Position numbers and translations under genes: made by a program
The notes under the pieces: model-generated
Databases searched by the model: none
What the model saw: only the letters and a program-made list of their open reading frames with translations
Told to the model about the DNA's origin: nothing
DNA from: Gammaproteobacteria bacterium
GTDB taxonomy: Bacteria; Pseudomonadota; Gammaproteobacteria; Steroidobacterales; JBCCMA01
Assembly (NCBI GenBank): GCA_045107005.1
Contig: JBGCFP010000040.1
Location: 10,470-74,469, forward strand
Length of the DNA stretch: 64,000 bases
Direction of reading: 5' to 3'
Shown: in pieces, positions 30,446 through 54,737 of the stretch
How positions within the stretch are numbered: the first letter of the stretch is position 1
Layout of the letters: each line of letters opens with the position of its first letter

Positions 30446-31369
30446 GTGTACAACCTTAAGTGGTTGTCCCGGGTAGCGCGCCAGGGCTTATCCGATCTGG
30501 CGCCGTCCATTCGCCAATCGTTCAACGACAATCCGGACGACGATCGTCTCACGTTAGTCTACGGCGAGATGCCACGGCGGAACATTCTGATCATCGCGCT
30601 GCTCGGGTGGCTGGGCGGGGCGATCTTTGCGCGCGGCTTTGCACAGTGGCCTTTTATCGATCTGGTGAATTGGCCCGCCGTGGCGCTGGCCGCCATCCAC
30701 GCACTGCTGATTCGACGCTACCTGTTCGAAACCGAGCACGCGCGGCCGGACGATTTTCCGTGGCTCGCCGCGTCGATGGCACCCGCCGTCGGGCTGCTCG
30801 CTGTGTTTTCGTTCGCATCAACTTTGATCGCAGGTCCCGAGGGAACGTCCACGACCGTACTGGCATGGATCGGTACGACGTTAATTGCCCTCACCCATGC
30901 ACTGGGGGTTGCCGCCTCTTTCGCCATTGCCCTTGCTGCGCTGTGCTATCGCCCGGACTGGCCTCGCGCGCTGGTGTCGCTGGCCAAGCAGCTGTTCATG
31001 TTTCGCTTGATGGTTTTTGTGACGACGCTGATCGTCCTTGAAATCGGCATCGTCGGGCCGATTGTCTCCCAACTGCTGCAGAACATTCTGGGTTTTTCGG
31101 TGCCGGACTGGTTGCCGGATCTGTTCGATCAGCTCAGCTACGCCGGGTTGCTGGGTATTGTTTATCTGGCCGTCATCGGTGCGACGTGGACGGTATGCCG
31201 TCAGCGCTTTGGACACTTGCTCAGCAGCGGCGACGTGGACGTCCTCAGCACCGTGGCGGCGATGGCCGTGGATCCTGAAAAAAGTGCCAAAAAAGAAGCC
31301 AGGCAACTGGCCAAGCTCGAGAAGGCGGAAAAAAAGAAGCGCAAAAAGGAGTCGAAGCCGCCAGAGTGA
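30446..31369 (+). CDS. multi-pass membrane protein of unknown function with lysine-rich C-terminal tail
   Basis: At least 6 hydrophobic helices by eye. The tail is EKSAKKEARQLAKLEKAEKKKRKKESKPPE. The start is uncertain (GTG at 30446 or ATG at 30569, MPRRNIL). Confidence 0.6.
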   Translation: MYNLKWLSRVARQGLSDLAPSIRQSFNDNPDDDRLTLVYGEMPRRNILIIALLGWLGGAIFARGFAQWPFIDLVNWPAVALAAIHALLIRRYLFETEHARPDDFPWLAASMAPAVGLLAVFSFASTLIAGPEGTSTTVLAWIGTTLIALTHALGVAASFAIALAALCYRPDWPRALVSLAKQLFMFRLMVFVTTLIVLEIGIVGPIVSQLLQNILGFSVPDWLPDLFDQLSYAGLLGIVYLAVIGATWTVCRQRFGHLLSSGDVDVLSTVAAMAVDPEKSAKKEARQLAKLEKAEKKKRKKESKPPE

Positions 31370-31410
31370 CCCCGACTCGCCCGCCATCCATAAAGGCAAT
31401 AGAAACTCGG

Positions 31411-31839
31411 CTAACCGTTCACCAGCTTCATGCCTTCGTGTGCCACTTCAAGAGTTTCGATGGCAACGTCACTGCTGGTCGAGCGAAAGCGCGGCGACTT
31501 GAGCGCCACCGGCCACGCATTACGCAACCGCCAGACGACCACCGGATCGTGCTGCTCGTTGAGCGCCTGAATCGTCAAATCGCGACGTTCAACCTGATTG
31601 AGCTGGATGGTTTCAAGCCAGTCGAAGAATTCATTGTCGCCCAAAACAATGCCGCGCTTGAGCGTCACGTTTCCATGTTTCGGTAAGCCCGGCATTTTGA
31701 GCGCTGTGTACGACGGGCTGTTGCCTTCGCGGTACTCGATGATGTCATGCTCCACATCAAGCCCCGACACTTCGGTAAAGCCAAGACGCGCTCCAGCCCA
31801 CTCCACTTGAAAATGAAAGCTTGTTAATGGATAGGTCAT
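31411..31839 (-). CDS. contractile-injection-system / phage tail tube protein (T4 gp19 family, Afp1/Pvc1-like)
   Basis: MTYPLTSFHFQVEW..GFTEVSGLDVEHDIIEYREGN...NVTLKRGIV..DNEFFDWLETIQLNQVERRDLTIQAL...WRLRNAWPVALKSP. This closely follows the conserved pattern of eCIS inner-tube proteins as I remember them (PF06841 / TIGR02241). Confidence 0.85.
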   Translation of the reverse strand: MTYPLTSFHFQVEWAGARLGFTEVSGLDVEHDIIEYREGNSPSYTALKMPGLPKHGNVTLKRGIVLGDNEFFDWLETIQLNQVERRDLTIQALNEQHDPVVVWRLRNAWPVALKSPRFRSTSSDVAIETLEVAHEGMKLVNG

Positions 31840-31879
31840 GGTCCGTTTCCTTCGAGATAAATAATGGGTTTGAGATGAA

Positions 31880-32290
31880 TTACCGTTCGAGCCAAAGCAC
31901 CGCGTCGTAGCGCACTTCGACCTCTTCCATGGCTACGGCACTTTGCAGGGCGTTCAGCAACGGTCCGGACCAGCGCACCGGTCGTGCGTTCTTGAGCGCA
32001 AACCGATTGACGACGTCGCCGTCTGCGCCGTCGAGCAGCTCAATCGTTACCGGGGCCAGTGTTTGCTTGCCGAGTTTGGTGTCGCGATACCAGTCATAGA
32101 GCGTGCGGTCATCGCTCACCGCGCGCTGCAGCGTGACCGACATTCTCAGATCAGGATCCGCCTCACCGTCGAGCAGATCGTGCAAATGACTGACCGCGTG
32201 CAGCGCCACTGGTCGGTCGCCGATCTCGATACGAAAATGCGCGATCTGCGACGGCCGTTCAACGGCCCCTCCCGGTTTCAAGTTTTTCAT
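31880..32290 (-). CDS. second, more divergent tail tube-like protein (T4 gp19 family)
   Basis: FRIEIGDRPVALHAVSHL...VTLQRAVSDDRTLYDWY...VTIELLDGADGDVVNRFALKNARPVRWSGPLLNA....AMEEVEVRYDAV has the same spacing of conserved positions as the neighbouring gene. It lies 40 nt upstream of that gene on the same strand. Confidence 0.7.
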   Translation of the reverse strand: MKNLKPGGAVERPSQIAHFRIEIGDRPVALHAVSHLHDLLDGEADPDLRMSVTLQRAVSDDRTLYDWYRDTKLGKQTLAPVTIELLDGADGDVVNRFALKNARPVRWSGPLLNALQSAVAMEEVEVRYDAVLWLER

Positions 32291-32444
32291 GCTCTGGCGG
32301 ATAGGCGTACCCAGTCAGAATGACAAGCCGAATGCCGCTCAGTGTGGCGAGGATTGTGCAGCGCCGCCATCGCCCCAACGGGGGATACGGTCTTGCGCCA
32401 GGTTCTGCCGTACACTGCGCTGACATCCAAAAAGGAGATGCGCC

Positions 32445-33158
32445 ATGACAACACCTACCGCCCTGATTACCGGCGCCAGCCGCGGCATCGGCCGTGCTTG
32501 CGCGATCGGACTGGCCGCGCTGGGTTATCGCGTCGTCTTGACCGCCCGCTCCAAATCAGGACTCCAGGCAGTTGAAGATGAAATTGCACAGCTAGACGGC
32601 AGTGGCGAGACCTTGAGTTTCCCGCTCGATGTGACCGACGATTCCGCGCTGCTGGCCCTGATCGGCCTGCTCCACAAACAGGTCGGTCAGATCGACGTGC
32701 TGGTGAACAACGCGGGCATTGATGCCGACGGCACGCTGGACACCGAGCAGGCGGATTTCGACCGGCTGCTCAACACCAATCTGCGGGCGCCTTACGTGTT
32801 ACTCAAACACGTTGTACCGATGATGGAAGGTGCCGCGAATCCGTACATTTTTAATGTCGCCTCGCGCGCGGGCAAAGTGGGTTTCGCCCACGCCGGGAGC
32901 TATGGCGCCAGCAAATTTGGCTTGGTTGGCCTCAACGAATCGCTGTATCGGGAATTCGCCTCATCGCCCATTCGCGTAACCGCCATTTGTCCCGGCTGGG
33001 TCAACACCGATATGGCGCAGTCGCCCAAATGCCCGCTCGAACCGGACGACATGATTCAGGTTGAAGACATTTTCGGCACGCTCGAGTGGTTGCTGTCGCT
33101 GTCACCGCAAACCTGCGTCAAAGAAGTGCAGATTGAATGCAAAGGCAGCATCGCCTGA
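32445..33158 (+). CDS. short-chain dehydrogenase/reductase (SDR)
   Basis: ALITGASRGIGRA (TGxxxGxG), NNAG, and the catalytic YGASK. Confidence 0.88.
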   Translation: MTTPTALITGASRGIGRACAIGLAALGYRVVLTARSKSGLQAVEDEIAQLDGSGETLSFPLDVTDDSALLALIGLLHKQVGQIDVLVNNAGIDADGTLDTEQADFDRLLNTNLRAPYVLLKHVVPMMEGAANPYIFNVASRAGKVGFAHAGSYGASKFGLVGLNESLYREFASSPIRVTAICPGWVNTDMAQSPKCPLEPDDMIQVEDIFGTLEWLLSLSPQTCVKEVQIECKGSIA

Positions 33159-33172
33159 AGCGCCCGGGCCGA

Positions 33173-34801
33173 CTATTGATCGTCGGCGAATCGAAATTCG
33201 GCAAACTGATCGCGCAGATCACGCTTCTGAATTTTCCCCGTCGCCGTATGCGGCAGTTCGTCAACAAACACCACGTCGTCGGGCATCCACCACTTGGCAA
33301 TTTTGCCCTTTAAGAACCCGAGCACCGTGTCGCCCTCGACCGTGGAGCCCTCCTCGCGCACGAGAATCAGCAGCGGCCGCTCACTCCATTTCGTGTGCGG
33401 TCGACCGATCACGGCTGCTTCCGCAACGCCTTGACACCCAACGGCAACGTTTTCGATTTCGATGGATGAAATCCACTCGCCGCCCGACTTGATGACGTCT
33501 TTGGCCCGGTCGGTGATTTGCATGTAGCCCGACGGGTCGATGGTGGCGACGTCGCCGGTGTCAAACCAGCCATCAGCCGTCAGCGCCGATTCGTCACTGC
33601 GGTAGTAGCCGCTGGATACTGCGGGTCCGCGCACCAGCAGATTACCAAACGTCTCGCCGTCGCGCGGCAAGTCCTTGCCCTCACCATCGACAATTTTCAT
33701 CTCTACCAGATACGGGGTTCGACCCTGCTTTTCCTTGATCTTGAGCTGCTCGCTGCGATCGAGCTGACGGGTTGCGTGCTTGAGCGATCCGGTCGTGCCA
33801 ACGGGCGACATCTCGGTCATGCCCCAACCGTGAATGACTTCCACGTCGAAATCGTTTTCAAAACGATCGATCATCATCGGCGGGCACGCGGCCCCACCAA
33901 TGACAACGCGTTTTAGGAACGGTAGCTGGCTCGACGTCTTGTCGAGATACTGGAGCAACCCCAGCCAGACCGTGGGCACCGCAGCGCTGCACGACACCTG
34001 TTCGCCGTCGAGCAACTCGTAAATGCTCTGGCCGTCCATACCGGCGCCGGGCATGACCATTTTGGCGCCCACCATTGGCCCCGAAAAGGCCAGTGCCCAC
34101 GCGTTGGCGTGAAACATTGGCACGATGGGGAGCACAGCGTCGGAGGAATCCAGGCCAAACACGTCGGGCAAGTTGACCATCATAGCGTGCAGCACATTCG
34201 AGCGATGCGAGTACATCACGCCTTTGGGATTGCCGGTCGTCCCCGACGTGTAACACAAACCAGCCGCGTCGTTCTCATCGACGCGCAGCCACGCGATGTC
34301 ATCGTCGACGCCGTCAATCCAGTCCTCGTAAGCCACCGCGTTGGTCAGCGTCGTCGCCGGCAAATGCGCGCCGTCGGTCATGACAATCACACGTTCGAGG
34401 GTCGGCAAGTGCTCCGCCAGTTTTTCAATGATCGGCAAGAACGTCAGATCGACAAAAACGATACGATCGGCGGCGTGATTGACGATGTAAATGAGTTGCT
34501 CGGCAAACAGCCGCGGGTTCAACGTGTGACAGATTGCGCCGATACCCATGATGCCGTACCACGCTTCCACGTGACGATCGGTGTTCCACGCCAGCGTCGC
34601 GATGCGATCGCCCTTGACGATGCCCTCACGTTGCAACGCTTTGGCGACGCGCAGTGCTCGCTGGCGCATTGCCCCGAGGGTTGTGCGCCGCAACGGACCT
34701 TCCACCGAGCGCGTAACCTGCTCGCGCTCGCCGTGATTGAGCGCAGCGTGATCGATTATGGTGTGAGCCAACAACGGGTAGTCTTGCATCAGGGCGCGCA
34801 T
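33173..34801 (-). CDS. long-chain acyl-CoA synthetase / AMP-dependent ligase
   Basis: AMP-binding motif [12 protein letters not shown], plus GWGMTE and [18 protein letters not shown]. The ATG at 34801 ([11 protein letters not shown]) has GGAGA 6 nt upstream. The track ORF extends 182 codons further upstream without support. Confidence 0.9.
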
Positions 34802-34942
34802 GCGTATCTCCGGTTTTGTTCGTCGGTGCAGTTTCACACGACGAGGTGCGCGCCGCCAAGTGCCAACGAGCGAACGCGGCCAATGACCCGATTGCTGTAT
34901 GGTTTGATCTTCGAATGACACTCGCCGACAGGAGTCCGTGCC

Positions 34943-35830
34943 GTGAACCATTATCAGACGATCGCCCTCACTTTTATTGCCATGGCGATGCCCCTGGCCA
35001 GCGCCGATCAGGAAATGCTGCAAAACGACGGTTTTTTCAGCGGCGCAGCCGCCACGTTTCAGGGCGGGTTTATCAGCGGCGAAGTTGCCGCGGTGCGTTT
35101 CGTGCCACAGATTCCGTGCCCGTGCGTCGTGCAGGACGTCACCGTGCTCTTCGGCGGCACGCCCGGGACAGAAGTGATGGGCGTCAGCGTGTGGGAAGAC
35201 GCGGCGAACGCGGACATACCGGGCAATCTGCTGTTCACCGGCGACGTCACACTGCAAGGCTCGAACGTCAATCTGCAGGTCATCGATCTCACGCTGACAC
35301 CGATCATCGTCAACGGTCCGTTTCGAGTTGGCCTTGAGTTCAATCACGACGGACTGCCCAGCGTCGCTACCGACAACGACGGTACTATTCTGGCCGACCA
35401 GAACTTCATCCTGGCCGATCTTGGCGGCGTGTCGTTTTGGTTTCGCTCCGCCACGCTCGGGGTGAGCGGCGACTTCATTATTCGCAGCACCGTCGATAAC
35501 CTGACTGCCGCAGACACCGACGGCGACGGTATCGCCGATGAGGCGGATAACTGCGTCGACGTCGCGAATCCTGCGCAGCTGGACACCAACAATGATGGTT
35601 ACGGCAATCAGTGCGACGCAGACCTGAACGATGACTGCGTCGTCAATGCTGCCGACCTGGGGCTGCTGCGCGCGGGATTCTTCTTGACGGCCGACGACCC
35701 GGGCTGGAACCCCGACGCTGACTTGAATGGCGACCTGGTGATCAACGTCGTGGATCTGGGCGGTTTGCGCGCGGCGTTTTTCGGCGCACCCGGACCGAGC
35801 GGTACGACCGACGTGTGCAACGTCAGGTGA
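34943..35830 (+). CDS. secreted protein with thrombospondin type-3-like and dockerin-like calcium-binding repeats
   Basis: Signal peptide MNHYQTIALTFIAMAMPLASA. It also carries DTDGDGIADEADNC and DTNNDGYGNQCD (TSP3-like). A pair DLNDDCVVNAADLGLLRAGF / DLNGDLVINVVDLGGLRAAF is dockerin/EF-hand-like. AGGAG lies before the GTG start. Confidence 0.7.
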   Translation: MNHYQTIALTFIAMAMPLASADQEMLQNDGFFSGAAATFQGGFISGEVAAVRFVPQIPCPCVVQDVTVLFGGTPGTEVMGVSVWEDAANADIPGNLLFTGDVTLQGSNVNLQVIDLTLTPIIVNGPFRVGLEFNHDGLPSVATDNDGTILADQNFILADLGGVSFWFRSATLGVSGDFIIRSTVDNLTAADTDGDGIADEADNCVDVANPAQLDTNNDGYGNQCDADLNDDCVVNAADLGLLRAGFFLTADDPGWNPDADLNGDLVINVVDLGGLRAAFFGAPGPSGTTDVCNVR

Positions 35831-43971: not shown

Positions 43972-45600
43972 ATGGACAGGCGGGATTTTTTAAAAGTGAC
44001 CGGTGTAGGCGTAGGCGGACTCATGCTGCCAATCACCGGGCGACTGGTGGCAGCACAAGAGTTGATTTCGCCTGCCGATTTGAAACTCAAACGCAAACTG
44101 GCCGACGCGGCGCTCACTGCGGCCAAAAAAGCCGGTGCGAGCTACGCCGACGCGCGCATTGGACGCTACCTCAATCAGTTCGTCGTGACCCGCGAGATGA
44201 AGGTCCAAAACATCGTTAACACCGAATCCGCCGGTGTCGGCATTCGCGTGCTGGTCAACGATACCTGGGGCTTTGCGGCAACCAGCGACATGACGCCCAA
44301 AAAAGTGGCCGAAGCCGCGCGCAAAGCCGCCGCCATTGCCAAAGCCAACTCCAAGTTCCAGACCAACCCGGTGGTGCTCGCGCCGGTCAAAGGCGTCGGC
44401 GAAGTGTCGTGGAAAACGCCCATCAAGAAGAACGCGCTGGAGATTCCCATCGCGGACAAAGTGGATATGTTGATGGAGGTCAACAACGCGGCGCTGACCA
44501 ACGGCGCCGATTTCGTTAACTCCATTTTCTATCTGGTCAATGAGCAAAAATATTTCGCCAGCTCCGACGGCTCGTACATCGATCAGGACGTGCACCGGGT
44601 ATGGGCGCCCATGACCATTACCGCGGTGGATAAGGAAACCGGAAAATTCCGTACCCGCGCCGGCATCGGCGACCCCGTTGGTATGGGCTGGGAGTACTTC
44701 GACGGTAACGAGAAGGACAAAATTCAAGGCGTCACTACGTTGTACGGAAAGAGCTACGACATGGTTGAAGACGCCGTCAACGGCGCCAAGCAAGCCCGCA
44801 AGAAACTGACCGCGCGTTCGGTCAAGCCGGGACAATACGACCTGGTACTCGATCCGACGCATTTAATGCTGACCATCCACGAATCAGTCGGTCACCCGCT
44901 CGAGCTCGATCGCGTGCTTGGTTACGAAGCCAACTACGCCGGCACCAGTTTCGCGACACTCGACAAGTGGCGCAGTGGTGACTTCAACTACGGCAGTCCA
45001 GAGGTCACGCTGTTCGCGGACAAGACCCAGGAGGGCTCGGTCGGTGCAGTCGGTTACGACGATGAAGGTGTGCCAACCAAACGTTGGGATCTGGTGAAGG
45101 ACGGCGTACTGGTCAACTATCAGGCGATCCGCGATCAGGTGCACATCATCGACCAGAAAGAATCCCACGGCTGCTGCTACGCCGACAGCTGGTCCAGCGT
45201 CCAGTTCCAGCGCATGCCAAACGTGTCGTTGGCGCCGGGTAAAGAAAAATACAGTGCCCAGGACATGATCAAGGACGTCGAGGACGGCATTTATATTGTT
45301 GGTCGTGGCTCCTACTCGATCGATCAGCAGCGTTACAACTTCCAGTTTGGCGGTCAGCTGTTCTATGAAATCAAGGACGGCGAGATCACCGATCAGATTG
45401 AAGACGTGGCGTACCAGTCAAACACCCAGGAGTTCTGGAACGCCTGCACGAAGATTTGCGACGAAAGCGACTACCGCATTGGCGGCACGTTCTTCGATGG
45501 CAAGGGTCAGCCCCCTCAGGTCAGCGCCGTTTCGCACGGTTGCTCAACCACGCGCTTTGACGGCATCAACGTCATTAACACCGCGCGCAAACTCGGCTAA
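43972..45600 (+). CDS. TldD-family metallopeptidase with twin-arginine (Tat) signal
   Basis: MDRRDFLKVTGVGVGGLMLP is a Tat signal. The zinc motif HESVGHPLELDR (HExxxH) is present. GGGGAG Shine-Dalgarno sequence upstream. Confidence 0.88.
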   Translation: MDRRDFLKVTGVGVGGLMLPITGRLVAAQELISPADLKLKRKLADAALTAAKKAGASYADARIGRYLNQFVVTREMKVQNIVNTESAGVGIRVLVNDTWGFAATSDMTPKKVAEAARKAAAIAKANSKFQTNPVVLAPVKGVGEVSWKTPIKKNALEIPIADKVDMLMEVNNAALTNGADFVNSIFYLVNEQKYFASSDGSYIDQDVHRVWAPMTITAVDKETGKFRTRAGIGDPVGMGWEYFDGNEKDKIQGVTTLYGKSYDMVEDAVNGAKQARKKLTARSVKPGQYDLVLDPTHLMLTIHESVGHPLELDRVLGYEANYAGTSFATLDKWRSGDFNYGSPEVTLFADKTQEGSVGAVGYDDEGVPTKRWDLVKDGVLVNYQAIRDQVHIIDQKESHGCCYADSWSSVQFQRMPNVSLAPGKEKYSAQDMIKDVEDGIYIVGRGSYSIDQQRYNFQFGGQLFYEIKDGEITDQIEDVAYQSNTQEFWNACTKICDESDYRIGGTFFDGKGQPPQVSAVSHGCSTTRFDGINVINTARKLG

Positions 45601-45645
45601 GCCCGAACGCCAACGCACATAAACAAACAATCTTTAGGTGGAATC

Positions 45646-46974
45646 ATGGCCATACTGAGCAACAAACAAGCGAAGAAAATTCTGACCAAGGTGATCAAGC
45701 TGTCCAAAGCGGACGCCTGTGAAGCAAATCTTTCGGGCACCGTCGGCGGCAACATCCGCTATGCGCGCAACTCGGTGAGCACGGCAGGCGTAGTGAGCGA
45801 CACGACGCTCGGCGTGCAGTCCAATTTCGGCAAGAAGGTCGGCGTCGCAACGACCAACGAATTCGACGATGAATCATTGCTGCGCGTTGTGCGACGCTCT
45901 GAAGAGCTCGCGCAGTTGTCGCCGGAGAATCCGGAATTCATGCCGGTGCTCGGACCGCAAAAATACGTCGAGTCGAAGGGCTACGCGAAGTCGACGGCGG
46001 AGATAACGCCGGAAATGCGTGCGCAAGCGGCGCAAGACAGCATTGAGCCAAGCATGAAGAACGACGCAACCGCCGCGGGCTTCCTGACCGACAGCGCCGA
46101 CTTTGACGCAATGATGAACAGCGCCGGCCTCTACGCTTACAACACCAGCACCAGTGCCAACTTCACCGTCACCGTGCGCACCGACGACGGTACCGGGTCG
46201 GGCTGGGCCACGCTGGACGACAACGATATCAACCGTCTCGACACAGCGCGCGCCTCCAAAGTCGCCATCGACAAAGCCGTGATGTCGCGCGATGCCAAAG
46301 CGCTGGAACCGGGTAAGTACACCGTCATTCTCGAGCCCAACGCGCTGGCCTCGTTCATGGGCCAGATGGTGTTTGCGTTCGACGCCCGTCAGTCAGATGA
46401 AGGACGTACATTTTTGTCGAAAAAAGGCGGTGGCAACCGCATAGGCGAAAAAGTATTCGACGAGCGCGTCAATCTGTACGCCGACCCCACCGACTCGCGC
46501 GTGCCGACACGGCCGTGGGACGATTCGGGTCAGCCCATGAAACGCCTTGATATCGTCAAAGATGGCGTGATCAAGAATCTGTTCTACTCGCGCTACTGGG
46601 CCGAACAGCAAAAGGTGGCGGCCATTCCGCAGCCCAACAATCTGATTATGGAAGGCGGCAAGCGGTCGCTTGATGAAATGGTCGCCAACACCGATCGCGG
46701 GATCCTGGTGACACGCACCTGGTACATCCGCGCGGTCGATCCGCAGACGCAGCTCTACACCGGTCTGACCCGCGACGGCACCTTCTACATTGAAGAAGGC
46801 AAGATCAAGTATCCGGTCAAGAACTTCCGCTTCAATGAAAGCCCGGTGATCATGCTGAACAACCTTGAAGAGCTGGGCGTGCCGGAACGCGTTTCACTAT
46901 TCGGCTTCCCAGTGATGCTGCCGCCGGTCAAGGCTCGTGAATTCACGTTCACCAGCCTGTCCGACGCCGTTTAA
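45646..46974 (+). CDS. PmbA/TldE-family protein (no HExxxH, no obvious signal peptide)
   Basis: It has the TldD/PmbA-family C-terminal pattern (GILVTRTWYIRAVDPQT...TGLTRDGTFYIEEGKI) but lacks a zinc motif. This is what I would expect for the non-catalytic partner. Confidence 0.85.
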   Translation: MAILSNKQAKKILTKVIKLSKADACEANLSGTVGGNIRYARNSVSTAGVVSDTTLGVQSNFGKKVGVATTNEFDDESLLRVVRRSEELAQLSPENPEFMPVLGPQKYVESKGYAKSTAEITPEMRAQAAQDSIEPSMKNDATAAGFLTDSADFDAMMNSAGLYAYNTSTSANFTVTVRTDDGTGSGWATLDDNDINRLDTARASKVAIDKAVMSRDAKALEPGKYTVILEPNALASFMGQMVFAFDARQSDEGRTFLSKKGGGNRIGEKVFDERVNLYADPTDSRVPTRPWDDSGQPMKRLDIVKDGVIKNLFYSRYWAEQQKVAAIPQPNNLIMEGGKRSLDEMVANTDRGILVTRTWYIRAVDPQTQLYTGLTRDGTFYIEEGKIKYPVKNFRFNESPVIMLNNLEELGVPERVSLFGFPVMLPPVKAREFTFTSLSDAV

Positions 46975-46985
46975 GACCGCCCAAC

Positions 46986-47678
46986 GTGCGTCGACGGCGG
47001 TTTCTGCGTGCGGCGAGCTCAGCGCTCGCCGTCGCCTGCCTGCCGTCGACGCGCGGGACAGGTCCCTACGACTTCAGTTTCACTCGACTTCAGTACGAGT
47101 CAGGGGACTGGGACGTCGATGAGCGGATGCCGAACAATTTGCTCAATTCACTGGTGGAATACACGACCATTCGCGTCGACCCGCAAGAGCGGGTTGTTGC
47201 GCTGGCCGATCCCGCGATGCTGCAAGCGCCGTTTTGCTATTTGGCCGGCCACCGACTCGTGCAGTTTAACGAGGCCGAACGCGAGAACTTCGAGCGCTAC
47301 GTGCGCAGTGGCGGGTTTGTCTTCGTCGACGACTGCAATCACGATATCGACGGTTTGTTCGCGGTGTCTTTCGAAAAACAGATGCGCGAGATCTTTGGCA
47401 AGGACGCGCTGGCAAAGCTCCCGGACAATCATCCCGTTTACTCGTCCTTTTTCGAATTCGACGGTCCTCCAGCCACCAGTTTTGAACTCAACGGCTGGGG
47501 CGATGATCTGGTTCACGACTATCTGCGCGGCATCGATATCGGTGGCCGCACGGGCGTTCTGTACAGCAACAAGGACTACGGCTGCGAATGGGACTACGAC
47601 TACCGAAACAAACGCTGGCTGGCGCAAGACAATACCCGCTTCGGGGTCAACATTGTGCTCTACGCGCTGACTTACTGA
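46986..47678 (+). CDS. DUF4159 domain protein with Tat signal
   Basis: MRRRRFLRAASSALAVA is a Tat signal. FTRLQYESGDWDVDERMPNNLL...PFCYLAGH..FNEAERENFERYVRSGGFVFVDDC...GVNIVLYALT matches the DUF4159 pattern as I remember it. Confidence 0.8.
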   Translation: MRRRRFLRAASSALAVACLPSTRGTGPYDFSFTRLQYESGDWDVDERMPNNLLNSLVEYTTIRVDPQERVVALADPAMLQAPFCYLAGHRLVQFNEAERENFERYVRSGGFVFVDDCNHDIDGLFAVSFEKQMREIFGKDALAKLPDNHPVYSSFFEFDGPPATSFELNGWGDDLVHDYLRGIDIGGRTGVLYSNKDYGCEWDYDYRNKRWLAQDNTRFGVNIVLYALTY

Positions 47679-47691
47679 GGAAACGTATCGC

Positions 47692-48708
47692 ATGGCGGTG
47701 AACCCCATACTCAACGAGGCGGACGTCGCCGCGAAGGTCGCAGGGCTTGCCGACGTTCGAGAGGCGATAGGTCAGGTGATCGTCGGCCAGGCCGAGGTGG
47801 TCGAACACATGTTGATCGGGCTGCTCGCAGGCGGTCACTGTTTGATTGAAGGAGTACCTGGTCTCGGCAAGACGCTGCTGGTCAACAGTCTCGCGCGCGC
47901 CATGACGCTGAACTTTCGCCGTATTCAATTTACGCCCGATCTGATGCCCAGTGACGTTATTGGCACCGAAATTCTCGAAGAAGATCACGGCACCGGCAAG
48001 CGGTCCTTCAAGTTTCAGCCCGGGCCGGTGTTTGCCAATATTCTGCTGGCCGACGAAATCAACCGGACGCCGGCCAAAACGCAAGCGGCGCTGCTCGAGG
48101 CGATGCAGGAATGCTCGGTCACCTACGCCGGCGAAACGCACACATTAAATCCGCCGTTCTTCGTCCTGGCCACGCAGAATCCTTTGGAGCAGTCTGGCAC
48201 TTACGCCCTGCCCGAGGCACAGCTTGATCGCTTTTTGCTCCATATCGAGATCGACTACCCGACGCTCGACGAAGAAACCGAAGTGCTGCGCCGAACGACC
48301 GGAGCGAGCCCTGCGCCAATCAATAAAGTGATGTCTGCGGACGACGTCTTGGCACTGCAGGCGCTGACTCGACAAGTGTCAATTTCCGACGGACTGCTGC
48401 ACTACGTCACCCATCTGATCCGTGCGACTCGTCCGGGCAAAGACGCCGTGGGTGCGATTAGCGAATGGGTGAAGTGGGGCGCCGGTCCGCGCGCCGGCCA
48501 GGCACTGATCCTCGCGTCGAAGGGCCGCGCACTTCTGCACGGTCGCTACGCGGTGACCCGTGACGATTTACACGCCATGGTACTGCCCGTTCTGCGCCAT
48601 CGACTGATCCTGAATTTTCATGCCGAGGCCGAGCAAAAGCGCGTCGCCGACATCGTTGACGCACTGCTGACGCACTACCCGGCGCCTGACGACCCCATCG
48701 CGGGATGA
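47692..48708 (+). CDS. MoxR-family AAA+ ATPase
   Basis: Walker A LIEGVPGLGKT, Walker B ILLADEINRTPAKTQAALLEAMQE, followed by FFVLATQNPLEQSGTYALPEAQLDRF. Confidence 0.93.
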   Translation: MAVNPILNEADVAAKVAGLADVREAIGQVIVGQAEVVEHMLIGLLAGGHCLIEGVPGLGKTLLVNSLARAMTLNFRRIQFTPDLMPSDVIGTEILEEDHGTGKRSFKFQPGPVFANILLADEINRTPAKTQAALLEAMQECSVTYAGETHTLNPPFFVLATQNPLEQSGTYALPEAQLDRFLLHIEIDYPTLDEETEVLRRTTGASPAPINKVMSADDVLALQALTRQVSISDGLLHYVTHLIRATRPGKDAVGAISEWVKWGAGPRAGQALILASKGRALLHGRYAVTRDDLHAMVLPVLRHRLILNFHAEAEQKRVADIVDALLTHYPAPDDPIAG

Positions 48709-49628
48709 CGCGCCAGCGCCCCCTCGACCCGACAACGCTCGCCCGAATTCGCGATTTGAAATTGCTGGCCCGGGTGGTGGTCGACGGTGCCCTGCACGGA
48801 ATCCACACCAGTCGTCAACGTGGCGAAGGCATGGAGTTCTCCGAATACCGTCAGTACGAGCCCGGTGACGACCCGCGTCAGATCGATTGGAAACTTTACG
48901 CCCGCTCCGACAAGGTCTTCGTCCGCCAGTCCGAGCGCGAAAGCCATGTGCCGGTCTGGATCATCGTCGACACGAGCGCATCGATGGCGCAGCCCAGCGC
49001 CGATGTCAGCGACTGGACGCGGCTCGACTGCGCGCGCGCCCTGGCGGCCAGTCTGGCGTATGTCTGCCAACAACAGGGGGACGCGTTCGGGCTACTCAGC
49101 CTCAACGACACCAACCGATCCTACCTCCCGTGCCGCGATGATGACCGCCAGCTCGACCGATTCGTCGCCGCGCTGAATCGGCTCGACGCGCAAGGTCAGT
49201 GGCCCAACACGACGCAACTCGACGCGCTGTGGGATCAGCTTCAGGGGCCCGGACTGGTCGTTGTCATCAGCGATTTCCTGCAAGACAGTCACGAAATTGA
49301 GCAGCTCCTTGGCAAGCTTGCCGGGCAACGCAAGGAGGTGCTGACACTCCAACTGCTGACGCGAGAGGAAGTGACCTTCCCGTATCACGGCAACATTGCG
49401 TTTCGCGATCGCGAGACCAATGAACAGGTTTTCGCCGATGCCGCGTCGGTGCGCGAACGCTATCTGGGCGCACTTAAAAGAGCGCGGCGTCATTGGATTG
49501 CAACGCTCGCGGGCTTGAACATTCAGGATTTTCTGACGCTGATTGAGGAACCTCTGGACGATACGTTGCGCCACTTCCTGAAACACCGTCGGCGCTTCGA
49601 TCGATCGCTGTTGCGTGAGACTCACTAG
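48705..49628 (+). CDS. DUF58 (vWA-like) protein, MoxR partner
   Basis: GIHTSRQRGEGMEFSEYRQYEPGDDPRQIDWK is the hallmark DUF58 motif. It has an ATGA overlap with the MoxR gene. Confidence 0.9.
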   Translation: MTRQRPLDPTTLARIRDLKLLARVVVDGALHGIHTSRQRGEGMEFSEYRQYEPGDDPRQIDWKLYARSDKVFVRQSERESHVPVWIIVDTSASMAQPSADVSDWTRLDCARALAASLAYVCQQQGDAFGLLSLNDTNRSYLPCRDDDRQLDRFVAALNRLDAQGQWPNTTQLDALWDQLQGPGLVVVISDFLQDSHEIEQLLGKLAGQRKEVLTLQLLTREEVTFPYHGNIAFRDRETNEQVFADAASVRERYLGALKRARRHWIATLAGLNIQDFLTLIEEPLDDTLRHFLKHRRRFDRSLLRETH

Positions 49629-50737
49629 TGGGCGTTGGCTGGCCGGCCGCCTTGTCAGGGTTAGCAGCGCTACTGATTCCGCTGTTGATCCATCTGTTAC
49701 AGCGCGGCGAGCATCGTGTCGTCCATGTCGCCATCACACGGTTCGTACCCGAGCAGCAGCGGCTGCGTTGGCGGCGCCTCAGGCTTTCGCAACCGATACT
49801 GCTCGCCCTGCGCCTACTCTTGATTGGCCTTGCCGTACTGCTGTTGGCCGAGCCGTATTGGCGTATCGCGGACAGCACCGACACCGAGCGGGCGTGGACG
49901 CTGATCTCGCCTCAGGCCGAGTTTGCCCAAGCGGACGCCGGCAACGGTTCGCGCTGGCTGGCACCTGGCTTTCCGCTGGCGTCAGAACCGCGCCCACCGT
50001 GGCAACCCGGGCAGTTGTGGTCACTGCTCGATGCCGCTCATCTTGCGGCACCGGCTGGTGTGCCGCTCAAGGTCGTTACGCCAAGTGTCGCCGCCGAGTT
50101 CGCGGCTCGACGGGCGCAGGTACCGCGCTCGATCCAGTGGGTTGCGGCGCCATCGCGCGATGCAGAAATACCCGTTCGCGAACCCATCCGGATACGAATC
50201 TTCGCCGATGCGGATCGCCAGTCGGATGCGATGGTCATCGAGCAAGCGGTAGAAGCGTGGCGCGATGCCGGCATCGACGTCGCGACGCAACGGATTTCCC
50301 GTCTACCGCTGGACGCATCGTCCGCCGCTACCGTTTGGTTAAGCCGCCAACCCGTTCCGCAGGACAGCGGCGTCTGGCTGACAGATCAAAACCCGAGCAG
50401 TGACGCGCTGCCCGTTGCCTTCGACACCGACGGTCGCGCGTCGCTGCGCAAGGCCGTAACGGGCGCCCGTGAGGTGATCTACTTTGCAGCGGGACTAAGA
50501 GCAACCGACAAGCACGTCAGCGACGCCTCATTTGCGTTGCGATTGCTGCAAAGCCTGCAGTCGGGGGCGATGCAGACGCCACCCGCCGATTACCCCGTCA
50601 GCCTTTCGGCGCTCACGCCGTCCGCCGACAGCACACAAGCGCAACGAAGGCCGTTGCTCCGGCTGTTCCTTTCGTTAATTCTGATCACCGCGCTGATGGA
50701 GCGGATGCTCAGCGCCTACCTGATGCGCGCGACGTGA
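49628..50737 (+). CDS. membrane protein with BatA-type N-terminal double-transmembrane domain
   Basis: WPAALSGLAALLIPLLIHLLQR ... LLALRLLLIGLAVLLLAEP looks like an aerotolerance-regulator N-terminal domain (TIGR02226-like). There is also a C-terminal TM helix. The GTG start overlaps the DUF58 stop (TAGTG). Confidence 0.75.
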   Translation: MGVGWPAALSGLAALLIPLLIHLLQRGEHRVVHVAITRFVPEQQRLRWRRLRLSQPILLALRLLLIGLAVLLLAEPYWRIADSTDTERAWTLISPQAEFAQADAGNGSRWLAPGFPLASEPRPPWQPGQLWSLLDAAHLAAPAGVPLKVVTPSVAAEFAARRAQVPRSIQWVAAPSRDAEIPVREPIRIRIFADADRQSDAMVIEQAVEAWRDAGIDVATQRISRLPLDASSAATVWLSRQPVPQDSGVWLTDQNPSSDALPVAFDTDGRASLRKAVTGAREVIYFAAGLRATDKHVSDASFALRLLQSLQSGAMQTPPADYPVSLSALTPSADSTQAQRRPLLRLFLSLILITALMERMLSAYLMRAT

Positions 50738-52968
50738 CCACTGAAACGGGACGTCTTGCGGAGCTCGCCGCACGGGTGGTTCGCCAGCGGCGAGTCGCTG
50801 GCGCGTTGATCGTTGGTGTCCTGGTTCTCACCGGCGTGGCGCTGAGCCAGTCGGTGGCACCGGTCGCCGTGCGGTTGGCGGTCGGATTGGGCGTGCTGGT
50901 CCTGGGTGGCTGGTTACTGCGTCGCACGCGTCTCGACGGCGCCGCGAGCGCCACTGACTACGCGCGTCATCTGGACGCCATCGAGCCGTCACTGCAGGAC
51001 AGTTGCGAACTGTTGCTCAGGGATCGCTCGCAATTGACCGGATTGGCTGCACTGGCCCATGAGCGCGCGGCCAGCCAGTTTCAGGCTTTGGATCAGGACG
51101 GCGGACTTGCGTCGACGCTGCCGCCCTTCCCCTGGTCCTACGTTGCGGCCGCTGGTGGCACCGCCGCTGTGGTGTCGACGTTAAGCTTGCTGTGGTCGGC
51201 GACCGAAACGGTCGACGACCGTGACTCAATTGTTCGCCCGCGTATTGCGTCAGCGACCGTCACACTGGCGCCCCCTGCCTATCTCGATCTGGCCAACTCG
51301 CGAACGCGCCAACTCGATTTTTCGACCGTGGAGAACGCGCAAGTGCAGTGGCGCCTGGAGCTCGATCGATCGGCGGAACAGGTTGCACTGCTCTTCCACG
51401 ACGGGGAGCGACTGGCACTGACCGGCGCATCGAGCCGGCGCTGGGAATCTTCGTCGTGGTCCGCGCGCTCCACCGTTTACCAGGTCATGGTCGACGGTGA
51501 GGAAACGCCCATCAGCGTCCACCGGATCGACGCCATCGTGGATCAGGCGCCGGTACTTACCGTCGAGTCTCCCGACGTTTCCCTGTTGACGTTGGCCGCA
51601 GATGCCGATAGCGCCCAGCTCGCACTGACATTCCGTGCGCAGGACGATCATCGAGTGGTGGGTGCCGTGGCCAAGGTAACGCTGGCCCGCGGAAGCGGCG
51701 AGCAAGTCCGGTTTCGAGAGCAGGATTTCCCACTTGACGTCACGTTCAGCGATGACGCCAGGAGCATTAGCGTCGATCAATCCATTGATCTCATCGAACT
51801 GGGGATGACACCCGGCGATGAGCTGTATCTGTTCGCTCAGGTCACCGACAACGAACCCAACGAACCCAACATTGGCGTGAGCAGTACGTTTATCGTGCGC
51901 TGGCCAGGCGAAGACGCGGATGCCGAGCTGACCAAGGCCACCGTTGCGGTGTCGGTACTGCCCGAATTTTTCCGCAGCCAGAGGCAGATCATCATCGACA
52001 CGGAAAAACTGCTGCGCGACCGACCCAAGCTGGAGGAATCGGAGTTTGCGCAACTGGCGCAGACGCTCGCCATCGATCAGAAACTCCTGCGCTTGCGCTA
52101 CGGCCAATACCTCGGCGAGGAAGACGACAGCGGCATCGGTGCCGGTGCAACCCGTCCTGTCGCAACGGATGACGACGATCACGACGAAAACGAGGAAGAA
52201 CACGAAGACCACGACGAGCACGAGGCACACGAAGAGCAACAACAATACGACCTGCACGATGAGCACGATCACGCTGGCCACGCTGACGAATCGTTCCCGT
52301 CCGACAAGCCGGTCACAGGCGATGCCGATGCCGCGATTGCGCCGTACGCTCATTTTCATGACCGAGCCGAACAGTCCTCGTTATTCGACCTCAATACGAT
52401 ACAGCTGTTGCGCGCGGCGTTGTCCAACATGTGGGATGCCGAACTGCAACTGAGGCTGGCCCAACCGCAACCCGCGCTGCCCTTTGAATATGAAGCACTC
52501 AAGTACATCAAAGCGGTTCAGCAAGGACCGCGTATCTATCTGCGCAGAGCCGGGTTTCGACCAACGCCGATCGACGAGGCGAGACGCTTGACCGGCGATC
52601 TCGATGAAATTGTCGAGCGCCCGGTGGAACACAGCGTCGCGTCGGCCGGCGAGCAGCAGCAGATGCGTGAGTTGGCGAGCGAACTGGTGCGCGTTGTTCC
52701 GAGCGCTGAGCGCATTGACGAAACACTCGCAGCGCTGGTCCCCGGCATTCGCACGCGCGCGGCGAGCGAAGCCACCTGGCTCCCTCTGCTCGAGGCCTTG
52801 CAGCGATTCGACGCGGACCGGCTGTGCGCAGACTGCCGCACGCAGTTGGTCGCTGCGCTGTGGCGATCACTCACCCCGACACTCGCCACGCCAGGTGCCG
52901 TGGACGCCGCGCCGCATCCGGTGGAAGAGGCGTATCGCCAGCGCCAGACGCAGGTCAAGTCACCGTAA
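50734..52968 (+). CDS. large membrane-anchored protein of unknown function with His/Asp/Glu-rich tract (possibly DUF4175-like)
   Basis: 744 aa with two N-terminal TM helices (ALIVGVLVLTGVAL, LAVGLGVLVLGGWLL). A beta-rich middle region follows. The acidic/His tract is DDDDHDENEEEHEDHDEHEAHEEQQQYDLHDEHDHAGHADE. GTGA overlap with the upstream gene. Confidence 0.7.
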   Translation: MTTETGRLAELAARVVRQRRVAGALIVGVLVLTGVALSQSVAPVAVRLAVGLGVLVLGGWLLRRTRLDGAASATDYARHLDAIEPSLQDSCELLLRDRSQLTGLAALAHERAASQFQALDQDGGLASTLPPFPWSYVAAAGGTAAVVSTLSLLWSATETVDDRDSIVRPRIASATVTLAPPAYLDLANSRTRQLDFSTVENAQVQWRLELDRSAEQVALLFHDGERLALTGASSRRWESSSWSARSTVYQVMVDGEETPISVHRIDAIVDQAPVLTVESPDVSLLTLAADADSAQLALTFRAQDDHRVVGAVAKVTLARGSGEQVRFREQDFPLDVTFSDDARSISVDQSIDLIELGMTPGDELYLFAQVTDNEPNEPNIGVSSTFIVRWPGEDADAELTKATVAVSVLPEFFRSQRQIIIDTEKLLRDRPKLEESEFAQLAQTLAIDQKLLRLRYGQYLGEEDDSGIGAGATRPVATDDDDHDENEEEHEDHDEHEAHEEQQQYDLHDEHDHAGHADESFPSDKPVTGDADAAIAPYAHFHDRAEQSSLFDLNTIQLLRAALSNMWDAELQLRLAQPQPALPFEYEALKYIKAVQQGPRIYLRRAGFRPTPIDEARRLTGDLDEIVERPVEHSVASAGEQQQMRELASELVRVVPSAERIDETLAALVPGIRTRAASEATWLPLLEALQRFDADRLCADCRTQLVAALWRSLTPTLATPGAVDAAPHPVEEAYRQRQTQVKSP

Positions 52969-54737
52969 TGCAGTGGCCGACGACAATTGCGCTCGGCGGC
53001 GCCGCATTGCTGGCGATCGTCTGTTTGGTGCAGATCAGCGCGCTGCGCCAATCCAACCGACAGACCGTCCAAGTGTGGATAGCCGCCGGTTTGAACATCT
53101 TGTTTGCGACCGCTCTTTGGCTGTTTTTGTGGCCGCCCGCGACGACGCAAACCCAAACAGAGGTGATCGTGCTGACGCCGTCGGCGACGACCGCGCAGCG
53201 CGCCCGCGCAAGGCGCGCTCGACACGCCGTTGCCCTTGGCGCTGTAACACTGACCGAAGGAGAACAGCGGAACATCACACGCATCACCGATCTCGCTGGC
53301 ATCGAAACCCTGTTTGGCAGCGTCGCGACGCTGCGTGTCCTGGGTGCCGGCATCGCGCCGGATGAGTGGCCGGCCGTGCGCCCCTGGGAAGTCGAATTTT
53401 CGCCACCGACCGAAGCGTCCGGCGTGCGCTCCGCCGACTGGCCCCGCGAGCTTGAAACCGGCGCGCCGTTCACCGTAACCGGAGCGCTCAACGCCGCGAC
53501 GCCGCCCAACGTCAACGTGCACCTCCTCGATCCGGCAGGGGACATCGTCGCAACGGCACAAGCGGACGGACAGCAACGCTTCGAGCTCACGGACGCCACT
53601 CGCGCGCCCGGCAATTTTTTGTACGGCGTGCGGGTCGACGGGGGCGGTGGCGACATCATCGAACAGGTCACCATCCCGGTAAGCGTGCTGGAGCCCGAAC
53701 CGGTGCAACTATTGATGCTGTGGTCGGCACCGTCCTTTGAGGCGCGCTATTTGACCGACTGGGCGCGCAACGCAGGCGCCAGTATCGCCACCCGCATCGC
53801 CATCAGCCGCGATCGCTATCGCGAGCAGTTCGTGCGCGCTGCGCAGCGGTCGCTGACGACCATAACGCCAGCCATCGTCGCCGGGTTTGATGCCGTACTG
53901 CTCGATGCGCGCAGTTGGTCGGCGTTGAGCGGACCGGAACGCGACTCGCTGATTCGATCGGTTCGCGAAGACGGTCTGGGCATTCTGATGCTGGTGCCAC
54001 GCCTGGCGGATCTCGACGCGCCCGCCAGTGAATTTCCCGGACTGCGGATTGGCCCGGGCGGCGCTTCGTCGCTCGCGCTGGATCTGACCGCCACCGTAAC
54101 GCGCGGCGAAATTGCGCTCGCGTCACCGGAAACCACGCTGATTGAAAGCGGTATCGGTGAACCGCTGGCTGGCTTTCGCCGCGCTGACAGCGGCCGCTTT
54201 GGCATCACCCTCGTGACCGACAGCTATCAATTGGTGACGTCAGGACAGGCGGCGACGCATGCACAATATTGGCAATCGTTGATTGACGGCATGGCGCCCG
54301 GTGAGCCGACCCTGACGATGGACGTTCAGCCGGTGCGGCCCGTCGCCAACAAGCGCACCGCGCTGTGTTTTCGCGGCACCGACTTACCCGGCTCGGCGTC
54401 GTTGCGCAACACGGCGCAGAACGCGCAACAGATTCGGCTTGTCACACAAGCCCTGCACCCTGGCGAACGCTGCGGCTACTGGTGGCCGGCCCGCGTCGGC
54501 TGGCACCGCGTGAATGTGGGTACGTCGACCAAGCATGTTTACGTGCACGCCGAACAGGACTGGCGGGTGGCCCGCGATGCGACATCGGCGGTTGCCACAT
54601 CCTTGATCGCCAACGGCGACGTGACACAACGCACGCAAGAGCAAAGGGTAACCAGCGTCTGGTCCAGAGTACCGTTTGCGATTGGCGCTCTGCTGATCGG
54701 TAGCTGGCTGTGGTGGGAGCAAAAAAACCGCGGCTAG
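52968..54737 (+). CDS. membrane protein of unknown function, middle region reminiscent of GATase1/ThuA-like domains seen in Bat-type proteins
   Basis: The ATG at 52968 (MQWPTTIALGGAALLAIVCLV) overlaps the upstream stop (TAATG). There are N-terminal TM helices and a C-terminal TM helix (PFAIGALLIGSWLWW). The segment VQLLMLWSAPSFEARYL...GFDAVLLD...VREDGLGILMLV is present. Confidence 0.7.
   Translation: MQWPTTIALGGAALLAIVCLVQISALRQSNRQTVQVWIAAGLNILFATALWLFLWPPATTQTQTEVIVLTPSATTAQRARARRARHAVALGAVTLTEGEQRNITRITDLAGIETLFGSVATLRVLGAGIAPDEWPAVRPWEVEFSPPTEASGVRSADWPRELETGAPFTVTGALNAATPPNVNVHLLDPAGDIVATAQADGQQRFELTDATRAPGNFLYGVRVDGGGGDIIEQVTIPVSVLEPEPVQLLMLWSAPSFEARYLTDWARNAGASIATRIAISRDRYREQFVRAAQRSLTTITPAIVAGFDAVLLDARSWSALSGPERDSLIRSVREDGLGILMLVPRLADLDAPASEFPGLRIGPGGASSLALDLTATVTRGEIALASPETTLIESGIGEPLAGFRRADSGRFGITLVTDSYQLVTSGQAATHAQYWQSLIDGMAPGEPTLTMDVQPVRPVANKRTALCFRGTDLPGSASLRNTAQNAQQIRLVTQALHPGERCGYWWPARVGWHRVNVGTSTKHVYVHAEQDWRVARDATSAVATSLIANGDVTQRTQEQRVTSVWSRVPFAIGALLIGSWLWWEQKNRG

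Follow-up and report, generated by a model that had tools for sequence, protein, structure and literature searches.

A two-gene locus of contractile-injection-system inner-tube homologues without neighbouring sheath genes, recurrent in bacteria and haloarchaea

A 64-kb stretch of DNA (hereafter the window), taken from the 89-kb contig JBGCFP010000040.1 of a metagenome-assembled genome (MAG) of "Gammaproteobacteria bacterium", carries two adjacent minus-strand genes, here called tubeA and tubeB, whose products are homologous to the inner-tube proteins of contractile injection systems (CIS). A preliminary description of this DNA, made from its letters alone, had singled out the two genes as tube genes lying apart from any contractile machinery. 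The two open reading frames (ORFs) are exactly as described there, encoding proteins of 142 and 136 residues and separated by 40 nt, and the peptides quoted in it (FTEVSGLDVEHDIIEYREGN, FFDWLETIQLNQVERRDLTIQAL and NAWPVALKSP) all fall within the 142-residue product, that of tubeB. The two genes are probably co-transcribed. Genes in the window were called from codon-position GC (about 53), and every one was scanned against Pfam. The window holds no sheath gene (Phage_sheath, PF04984), which in a CIS locus adjoins the tube gene, and the rest of such a cluster, that is the baseplate and spike (GPW_gp25, Baseplate_J/Afp11, Phage_GPD/VgrG, Cis7, PAAR, LysM), the Pvc16_N cap and the CIS-type AAA+ ATPase, was likewise absent from the 64 kb, in agreement with the earlier account. 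Nor did the scan return an integrase, a transposase or a capsid gene.

The two tube-family proteins

Judged by its sequence, tubeB is a canonical Cis1-type inner-tube subunit. The protein matches PF06841, the T4 gp19-like family, over its full length (153.6 bits, E=3.4e-45; cutoff 28.2) and passes TIGR02241 (121.1 bits; cutoff 62.4). Its best sequence match in the PDB is All3324 of the Anabaena thylakoid-anchored contractile injection system (tCIS; 7b5h; E=9e-58, 58.9% identity); the AlgoCIS tube (7adz; 5e-57), Pvc1 (3e-30) and Afp1 (3e-28) are also matched, whereas the resemblance to the Cis5-type adaptors Pvc5 (1e-10) and Afp5 (1e-8) is much less strong. The identity of tubeB to genuine sheathed tubes is 57-60%, and it falls together with the tube protein from a complete extracellular contractile injection system (eCIS) of Larkinella; the PHROG tail-tube family is matched at E=7.5e-15 only. 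The hairpin of the tube proteins is intact in tubeB, with strands at residues 29-38 and 45-55 of an AlphaFold2 (AF2) model and with the invariant EYReG and KMPG motifs in place. An attempt to name the two proteins Cis1 or Cis5 through the NCBIfam equivalogs CIS1_fam and CIS5_fam (cutoffs 220 and 260 bits) was abandoned: tubeB scores 36 and 77 bits and tubeA 18 and 45 bits, far below the cutoffs, and the ranking of CIS5 over CIS1 contradicts the PDB comparison.

The preliminary description had regarded both genes as inner-tube genes and had suggested a check with PF06841 and TIGR02241. Both proteins do pass PF06841, but they are not equivalent. Whereas tubeB passes both profiles, tubeA matches PF06841 over residues 51-129 only (56.6 bits, E=3.1e-15) and, with 52.5 bits, stays under the TIGR02241 cutoff. 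An AF2 model of tubeA, with a predicted local distance difference test (pLDDT) of 88 and a predicted template-modelling score (pTM) of 0.80, keeps the core of the tube fold but shows no strands in residues 29-50; a short loop, at about residues 34-50, stands where tube proteins have a long beta-hairpin. In Foldseek searches the best matches of the model are Pvc1 and Afp1 (template-modelling (TM) score of 0.77), with Streptomyces Cis1a also at a probability of 1.00, and Cis5-type proteins and Hcp (6bdc, 8gra) come next. The tube fold, a beta-sandwich with one outer helix, is thus assigned to tubeA from the AF2 model and Foldseek, and to tubeB from its homology to solved tubes and its own AF2 model. 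An end-to-end alignment of tubeA to Pvc1 requires gaps placed in the hairpin region, and a profile alignment of tubeA with tubeB (hhalign; 99% probability, 29% identity) deletes 5 and 10 residues in tubeA, which removes the EYReG and KMPG motifs that are invariant in tubeB. Counted on the tubeA profile, the distance between two conserved anchors is 33 residues in tubeA and 48 in tubeB, with a median of 33 over 212 tubeA-type proteins. Indexed homologues in the family number 365. At E<=1e-30 an exhaustive profile search with the tubeA alignment gave 49 representatives, and at E<=1e-10 it gave 856.

On the strength of these alignments and of the predicted structure, tubeA is a distinct family of diverged tube paralogues from which 15 hairpin residues have been lost. 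The hairpin difference between the two proteins is the main mechanistic clue offered by the locus. In the tubes of pyocin, T4 and the Photorhabdus virulence cassette (PVC), the lumenal beta-barrel is continued into the next ring by the long hairpin. The loss of the 15 residues would therefore leave tubeA able to join or abut a ring, but unable to propagate stacking.

When ten tubeB proteins from orphan loci are set against fifteen close tubes that are linked to a sheath, a further difference emerges. About a dozen positions, most of them charged, vary in orphan tubeB, while their conservation among the sheath-linked tubes is 93-100% (K7, T31, E32, E43, K46, K54, K112, D117, K119 and D121), and mean identity is 55.7% among orphan tubeB proteins against 75.1% in the canonical set, a contrast that may owe part of its size to the uneven sampling depth of the two sets. 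The relaxation of charged positions, together with greater divergence under purifying selection, fits the loss of one interaction partner.

Recurrence and evolution of the pair

The preliminary description had also held that a conserved tube-only module of two genes would imply a function independent of a sheath, and had proposed that its recurrence be looked for in related genomes. The tubeA profile, run against species-representative genomes, picked out 40 loci. In all loci retrieved, CIS genes were annotated within +/-10 kb with hidden Markov models (HMMs) grown iteratively from a Pfam-labelled Larkinella eCIS cluster. The tube-only pair is present at about 29 non-redundant loci, the window included, and in none of them did these HMMs detect a sheath, Cis7, VgrG, gp25, baseplate or cap gene. 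The carriers belong to the Gammaproteobacteria, the Rhodospirillales and other Alphaproteobacteria, the Gemmatimonadales (Gemmatimonadota), the Chloroflexia (Chloroflexota), the Actinomycetes (Actinomycetota) and the Halobacteria (Haloferax), and in two complete genomes, those of Oryzobacter terrae (NZ_CP170578.1) and Haloferax sp. YSSS75 (NZ_CP177206.1), the absence of CIS genes near the pair was confirmed with Pfam. Other carriers whose genomes are complete or nearly so are Nocardioides guangzhouensis (NZ_SDKM01), the MAGs GCA_964352435.1, GCA_045106455.1 and GCA_054873975.1, and the MAG that encodes MFK8015043.1. The same HMMs recognize canonical clusters. As a control, a metagenome scan with tubeB gave 23 loci; at 22 of these the tube gene is accompanied by other CIS genes, arranged canonically (cap, sheath, tube, tube5, DUF5908, Cis7, VgrG, gp25, baseplate), the remaining one being a 1.4-kb fragment; tubeB identity at the control loci is 40-60%, apart from a 53-residue fragment at 68%, and the sheath gene lies directly upstream of the tube gene wherever the contig reaches that side.

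The nearest relatives of tubeB are 64-77% identical to it and have the arrangement of the window, tubeA followed after a short gap by tubeB; in L001, L002, L007 and L010 the gap is 25-50 nt. Other arrangements were also seen. In the Actinomycetes L029, L030, L031, L033 and L039 the tube genes are divergent and about 50 nt apart, Oryzobacter terrae being among the divergent Actinomycetes, and in the Alphaproteobacteria L035, L037 and L052, as well as in the Halobacteria, tubeB precedes tubeA. In Haloferax sp. YSSS75, tubeB (L043:9168-9767) bears an acidic C-terminal extension of about 55 residues, and the pair directly adjoins the genes for glutamine synthetase (glnA) and an Lrp/AsnC regulator.

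The neighbours of the pair are unrelated between loci (examples in Table 1), and clustering of all neighbours within +/-5 kb across the loci gave no third conserved gene: apart from generic ABC ATPases and synteny confined to particular lineages, the clusters contain only shadow ORFs antisense to the tube genes. The synteny concerns three species-level genomes of the Rhodospirillales (L007, L020 and L022), in which the pair occupies the same slot, between NMT1/ABC transporter and aldo-keto reductase genes on one side and TetR and luciferase-like monooxygenase genes on the other, which argues for vertical retention in that group.

In every comparison and for both genes, the proportion of nonsynonymous differences (pN) is far below that of synonymous ones (pS); the corresponding rate ratio (dN/dS) is 0.09-0.39 for tubeA and 0.10-0.19 for tubeB, with dS saturated. 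In addition, the distance matrices of tubeA and tubeB correlate over 22 loci (Mantel r=0.755, a value reached in 0 of 2000 permutations). The two genes are thus under purifying selection and co-diverge. These observations bear directly on the possibility that the pair is a functionless, decaying remnant of a lost CIS cluster or of a prophage tail region, a view that is already largely refuted and that we consider highly improbable. Its support comes from the slightly lower GC content of the pair (0.568 against 0.599 for the window, the small deficit mentioned in the preliminary description), from the structural element lost in tubeA, and from a single disrupted locus, a Rhodospirillales MAG in which tubeB (L020:10403-10859) has an 8-nt frameshifting deletion relative to the syntenic L022. 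The sequence downstream of that deletion is still well conserved, so that it represents either very recent decay or an assembly error, the latter being possible because the source is a MAG. Both ORFs, however, are intact in about 28 of the 29 loci, which bears out the expectation that the genes are not decaying; exactly these two genes and no others have been kept across phyla; the tubeA model is a confident one; and identities of 45-77% contradict a very recent transfer of a single dead fragment. Nor are there other phage or CIS fragments near the pair in the window, where, as had been remarked before, no phage boundary is evident: phage and integrase families are lacking by Pfam, no tRNA was found, and flanking or att-type repeats do not exceed short matches at chance level. 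Viral contigs (IMG/VR) scanned with the tubeA profile gave no relative.

In a crude neighbour-joining (NJ) tree, in which long-branch effects are possible, a single clade unites the tubeA-type proteins from every orphan locus and also takes in the second tube of three canonical CIS clusters of Micromonosporaceae, and the tubeB partners at the orphan loci sit among canonical Cis1 tubes. The tree hints that tubeA may descend from a cis1b-like paralogue once located within a cluster. Taken together, recurrence at about 29 loci in several phyla with unrelated neighbours and no third gene, purifying selection and co-divergence support the proposal that the pair is a conserved tube-only two-gene module rather than an accident.

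Setting of the pair in the window

The gene content of the window is that of an ordinary chromosome. The families recognized include 2-oxoacid:ferredoxin oxidoreductase, an IcmF-type mutase, glutaminyl-tRNA synthetase (GlnRS), glycerol kinase, gamma-glutamyltranspeptidase, enoyl-CoA hydratase, quinone oxidoreductase, short-chain dehydrogenases/reductases (SDRs), acyl-CoA synthetase, MetY/MetA, HflKC, a resistance-nodulation-division (RND) pump and LeuCD. The pair is flanked by a convergent membrane-protein gene and a divergent SDR gene, as the preliminary description had it (Table 1). The convergent neighbour has no match in Pfam, NCBIfam, PHROG or PADLOC and is not kept beside the pair at other loci.

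A candidate intrinsic terminator follows tubeB. Terminator-like sites in the region number 2, against 1.9 expected from shuffled sequence, which is background, and it is therefore only the position of the candidate that argues for it. The divergent intergenic region upstream of tubeA presumably holds the promoter of the pair; a promoter scan found no match to the sigma-70 consensus.

Table 1. Features of the tubeA-tubeB locus, selected loci that carry the pair, and related tube genes. Plain coordinates are positions in the window.
Feature	Location	Strand	Description
tubeA	31880..32290	-	136 aa; upstream gene of the probable operon; diverged tube paralogue
tubeB	31411..31839	-	142 aa; assigned by homology as a canonical Cis1-type inner-tube subunit
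tubeA-tubeB spacer	31840..31879	-	40 nt, AT-rich; Shine-Dalgarno-like AAGGAA 11 nt upstream of the tubeB ATG (read from the sequence)
Candidate intrinsic terminator	31349..31378	-	11-pair hairpin, then CTTTTTGCGC; begins 33 nt past the tubeB stop; overlaps the 3' end of the convergent membrane-protein gene
Divergent intergenic region, tubeA/SDR	32291..32444		154 nt; presumed promoter region of the pair
Divergent neighbour	32445-33158	+	SDR; adh_short E=1e-50
Convergent neighbour	30446-31369	+	307 aa; about 6-7 hydrophobic segments; lysine-rich C-terminal tail (KKEARQLAKLEKAEKKKRKKESK)
L001	L001:1-6092		Pair 246 nt downstream of Wadjet JetABCD (JetB/JetC/JetD), on the same strand; closest relative with usable context, tubeB 77% identity
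L002			Pair between DUF4922 and a PAS histidine kinase; patatin also adjoins
L007			Pair between aldo-keto reductase and TetR genes; Tara scaffold
L010			Pair adjoins a beta-helix protein
L013			Pair adjoins FG-GAP and nSTAND (nSTAND/tetratricopeptide-repeat (TPR) NTPase) genes
AAA-tubeA proteins			P0250, P0253, P0262, P0272, P0283, P0285-P0287, P0297, P0309, P0323
AAA-tubeA loci	L027:3-2309; L082:1282-2244		Each beside a tubeB-like gene
P0242	L057:10001-11368 (GCA_054873975.1)		Single 455-aa chain: AAA-like, tubeA-like and tubeB-like
Second tube of canonical Micromonosporaceae CIS clusters	L040:9974-10435; L044:9977-10435; L045:9977-10435		In the tubeA clade (NJ)

Other features of the window deserve mention in their own right. 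A gene at 34943-35830 (+) encodes a protein of 295 residues that appears to have a signal peptide and contains repeats rich in Asp (DTDGDGIADEADNC, DTNNDGYGNQCDADLNDD), which recall calcium-binding thrombospondin-type-3 or dockerin repeats; the protein has no Pfam match at E<=1e-4. The longest ORF of the acyl-CoA synthetase (33173-35347, (-)) is about 175 codons too long and runs into the gene next to it; the AMP-binding domain starts near 34822. A long operon (43972-54737, (+)) comprises TldD, PmbA, DUF4159, MoxR AAA_3, DUF58 and a BatA-like N-terminal protein, with two large proteins without a Pfam family after it, one of which has an acidic stretch rich in His, Asp and Glu; it resembles Bacteroides aerotolerance-type operons. 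Its MoxR protein (47692-48708) is the only AAA protein of the window.

Fusions, related systems and possible function

About a dozen relatives of tubeA are proteins of about 300 residues (Table 1) that have an AAA+ domain at the N terminus and a tubeA-type domain at the C terminus. That they might be tube-tube fusions was considered and ruled out, the N-terminal part being AAA. The fused AAA+ domain matches Pfam only from about profile position 14 on; its Walker B motif, LFFDEADALFGKR, is intact, and its Walker A/P-loop is degenerate (LLxGGxxGDR). When an HMM was built from this domain, it recognized the genuine ATPases in canonical CIS clusters of Micromonospora (E=4e-27) and gave no match in the window. 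Many of the fused forms keep a full-length hairpin region, which makes the short hairpin a feature of the stand-alone type of tubeA found in the window. P0242 is a single chain with AAA-like, tubeA-like and tubeB-like parts, and its gene lies among glycosyltransferase, DUF2064, pyridoxal-phosphate (PLP)-enzyme and GreA genes, in a neighbourhood free of CIS genes over +/-10 kb. As Rosetta-stone evidence, the fusions indicate that tubeA and tubeB act together. The single chain, moreover, fixes the ratio of tubeA to tubeB at 1:1, a poor fit to a long homogeneous tube inside a sheath, and the joining of tubeA to a hexamer-type AAA+ domain that lacks a P-loop, once also with tubeB, points to a stacked-ring particle. 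The gp27/VgrG hub has tandem tube-like domains in one polypeptide, and its trimer forms a pseudo-hexameric ring. By analogy, P0242, with two tube domains per chain, could build a pseudo-hexameric ring or two stacked rings; unlike the hub, however, it has no spike or gp5-like part and carries an N-terminal AAA domain without a P-loop, and in the window the two tube genes are separate.

The shape of tubeA and the company kept by some of the pairs raise the possibility of interference with phages or tailocins, in which the two host proteins would imitate tube subunits and be built into the tail tube of a contractile-tailed phage during infection, and the hairpin-less tubeA would act as a chain-terminating poison that blocks tail assembly. 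The sporadic spread over several phyla and the variable neighbourhoods are typical of defence genes, and there are defence-type neighbours (Wadjet JetABCD in L001, an nSTAND/TPR NTPase in L013, patatin in L002); tubeA looks as a capping poison would, and the AAA part of P0253 weakly matches the anti-phage ATPase IteA. The IteA match, however, is of 25 bits, far under the 510-bit cutoff, and tubeA, tubeB and two neighbouring genes have no match in PADLOC-DB 2.0.0 at E<=0.1. Most contexts, the window included, are plain metabolism, and the Rhodospirillales synteny suggests long vertical retention. In addition, tubeB is far closer to CIS tubes than to phage tubes, and no relative of tubeA turned up in the viral contigs scanned. 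We regard interference as improbable.

A second alternative, which we rank as the main rival, though at well below an even chance, is that the pair encodes accessory tube subunits that would act in trans on a CIS located elsewhere in the same genome, tubeB supplying or varying the tube and tubeA serving as an alternative initiator, terminator or adaptor ring. The model for this is the orphan hcp genes of type VI secretion systems (T6SS) or the paralogues cis1a and cis1b, two tube genes held by Streptomyces CIS clusters (PMC10066040). The closeness of tubeB to working tubes and its grouping with the tube of the complete Larkinella eCIS speak for it, as do the placement of the second Micromonosporaceae tube with tubeA in the NJ tree and the match between the AAA-like domain of the fusions and the ATPases of real CIS clusters. 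The actinobacterial clusters resemble the present locus in having two tube paralogues side by side, the second of which, in Micromonospora and Phytohabitans, falls in the tubeA clade (NJ). They differ from it in that theirs are part of complete clusters (sheath, Cis7, VgrG, gp25, baseplate, ATPase) and that their second tube is a full-length match to the tube profile. The orphan hcp and hcp-vgrG islands of the T6SS, and the Hcp rings that serve as effector chaperones, are alike in that genes of a tube family lie away from the main machine and in that tubeA, whose hairpin loop is short, matches Hcp structures. Hcp, however, is another sequence family, the pair matching PF06841, and orphan hcp genes serve a T6SS in the same genome, whereas the pair is known here from local neighbourhoods; the Pfam scans of the window returned no Hcp, VgrG or PAAR family, and no spike or effector gene adjoins the pair. 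Finally, split CIS loci are documented, for T6SSiv of Amoebophilus asiaticus and 13 further genomes (PMC6899500), which gives a precedent for CIS parts at separate sites of one genome; those parts each hold several CIS genes, whereas the loci described here hold two tube genes only and recur in that form across phyla.

Several observations speak against such a supply in trans. Each canonical cluster examined has its own tube genes by the sheath, and Cis1 is present in 98.6% of CIS clusters (PMC12210884), so that a tube-less CIS awaiting the pair would be unusual. Only about 1.9% of bacterial genomes have an eCIS (PMC8213781), and the pair is found in about 29 different non-CIS contexts. The AAA-tubeA-tubeB chain imposes a 1:1 stoichiometry that is odd for a tube component, and orphan tubeB is relaxed at several residues that are invariant in sheathed tubes.

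The reading that we prefer, tentatively and at somewhat less than an even chance, is that the pair is a self-contained operon derived from the CIS inner tube, whose products form a sheath-less hetero-assembly, with tubeA capping, nucleating or alternating with a polymerisable tubeB. It is plausible that the pair works independently of a contractile sheath. On this reading, tubeB is expected to form hexameric rings that stack via the long beta-hairpin, and tubeA, keeping the ring-forming core, to be able to join or sit on a tubeB ring without propagating the stacking. The product would be a short tube bearing a cap, a double ring, or a ring in which the two subunits alternate (A3B3), with a stoichiometry of about 1:1. 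As a guess at its role, such a cytoplasmic Hcp-like ring or short tube could be a scaffold or holder for a client protein. We infer the physical interaction of the two proteins, its geometry, its independence of a sheath and its role in the cell. The comparison with the Cis1/Afp1/Pvc1 tubes (AlgoCIS, 7adz; tCIS All3324, 7b5h; PVC, 6j0b; antifeeding prophage (AFP), 6rao) illustrates what is shared and what is not: tubeB is a full-length homologue with an intact hairpin and tubeA has the same fold, with the TM score to Pvc1 given above. In those systems, however, the tube gene directly follows the sheath gene in a cluster of more than ten genes, whereas here there are two tube-family genes only, one of them without the hairpin that links rings, and relaxation has affected several residues that sheathed tubes keep invariant.

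A number of points weigh against this autonomous assembly. The absence of CIS genes covers +/-10 kb at each carrier locus and 31 kb on each side in the window, which itself comes from a MAG and an 89-kb contig, and split CIS loci do exist (PMC6899500). At 57-60% identity to sheathed tubes, tubeB may still fit inside a sheath. The contrast in conservation between orphan and canonical tubes may in part reflect sampling depth, as stated above, the tree is a crude one, and in L020 the tubeB frame is broken.

The surveys of CIS define them by several components, namely Afp11 plus Afp1/5 (PMC6899500), at least 4 linked genes with at least 3 different Pfams (PMC8213781), or baseplate, tube and sheath-initiator genes (PMC12210884), and all three therefore exclude two-gene tube loci by design. 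In the literature searched, which did not cover all journals, neither stand-alone PF06841 pairs nor AAA-tube fusions were found described. It may be, and we advance this with slightly less assurance than the assembly proposed for the pair itself, that the pair and the AAA-tubeA and AAA-tubeA-tubeB forms make up an unrecognised family of autonomous, sheath-independent particles that stem from the inner tube of a phage tail or CIS, spread over at least five bacterial phyla and the haloarchaea, which would take the form of a capped short tube or stacked ring and have a role unrelated to injection.

All the machines that derive from phage tails (T6SS, eCIS, tailocins, tCIS) are regarded as injectors driven by a sheath, and surveys define them by multi-gene clusters. 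If the pair does serve a CIS elsewhere, CIS tubes can be supplied or modified in trans, which would bear on the prediction of CIS from genomes and on the re-engineering of cargo loading. If, as we favour, it is autonomous, it would represent a new class of phage-tail-derived particle, and a tube-only module with a stacking-incompetent copy would mean that a viral structural protein has been domesticated in a new way, and would give a minimal two-protein system for the control of tube length and nucleation. The pair could further provide engineers with a compact protein nanotube or ring that assembles by itself. Found in many bacteria and some archaea, the two-gene unit may be a stand-alone module that has been overlooked until now.

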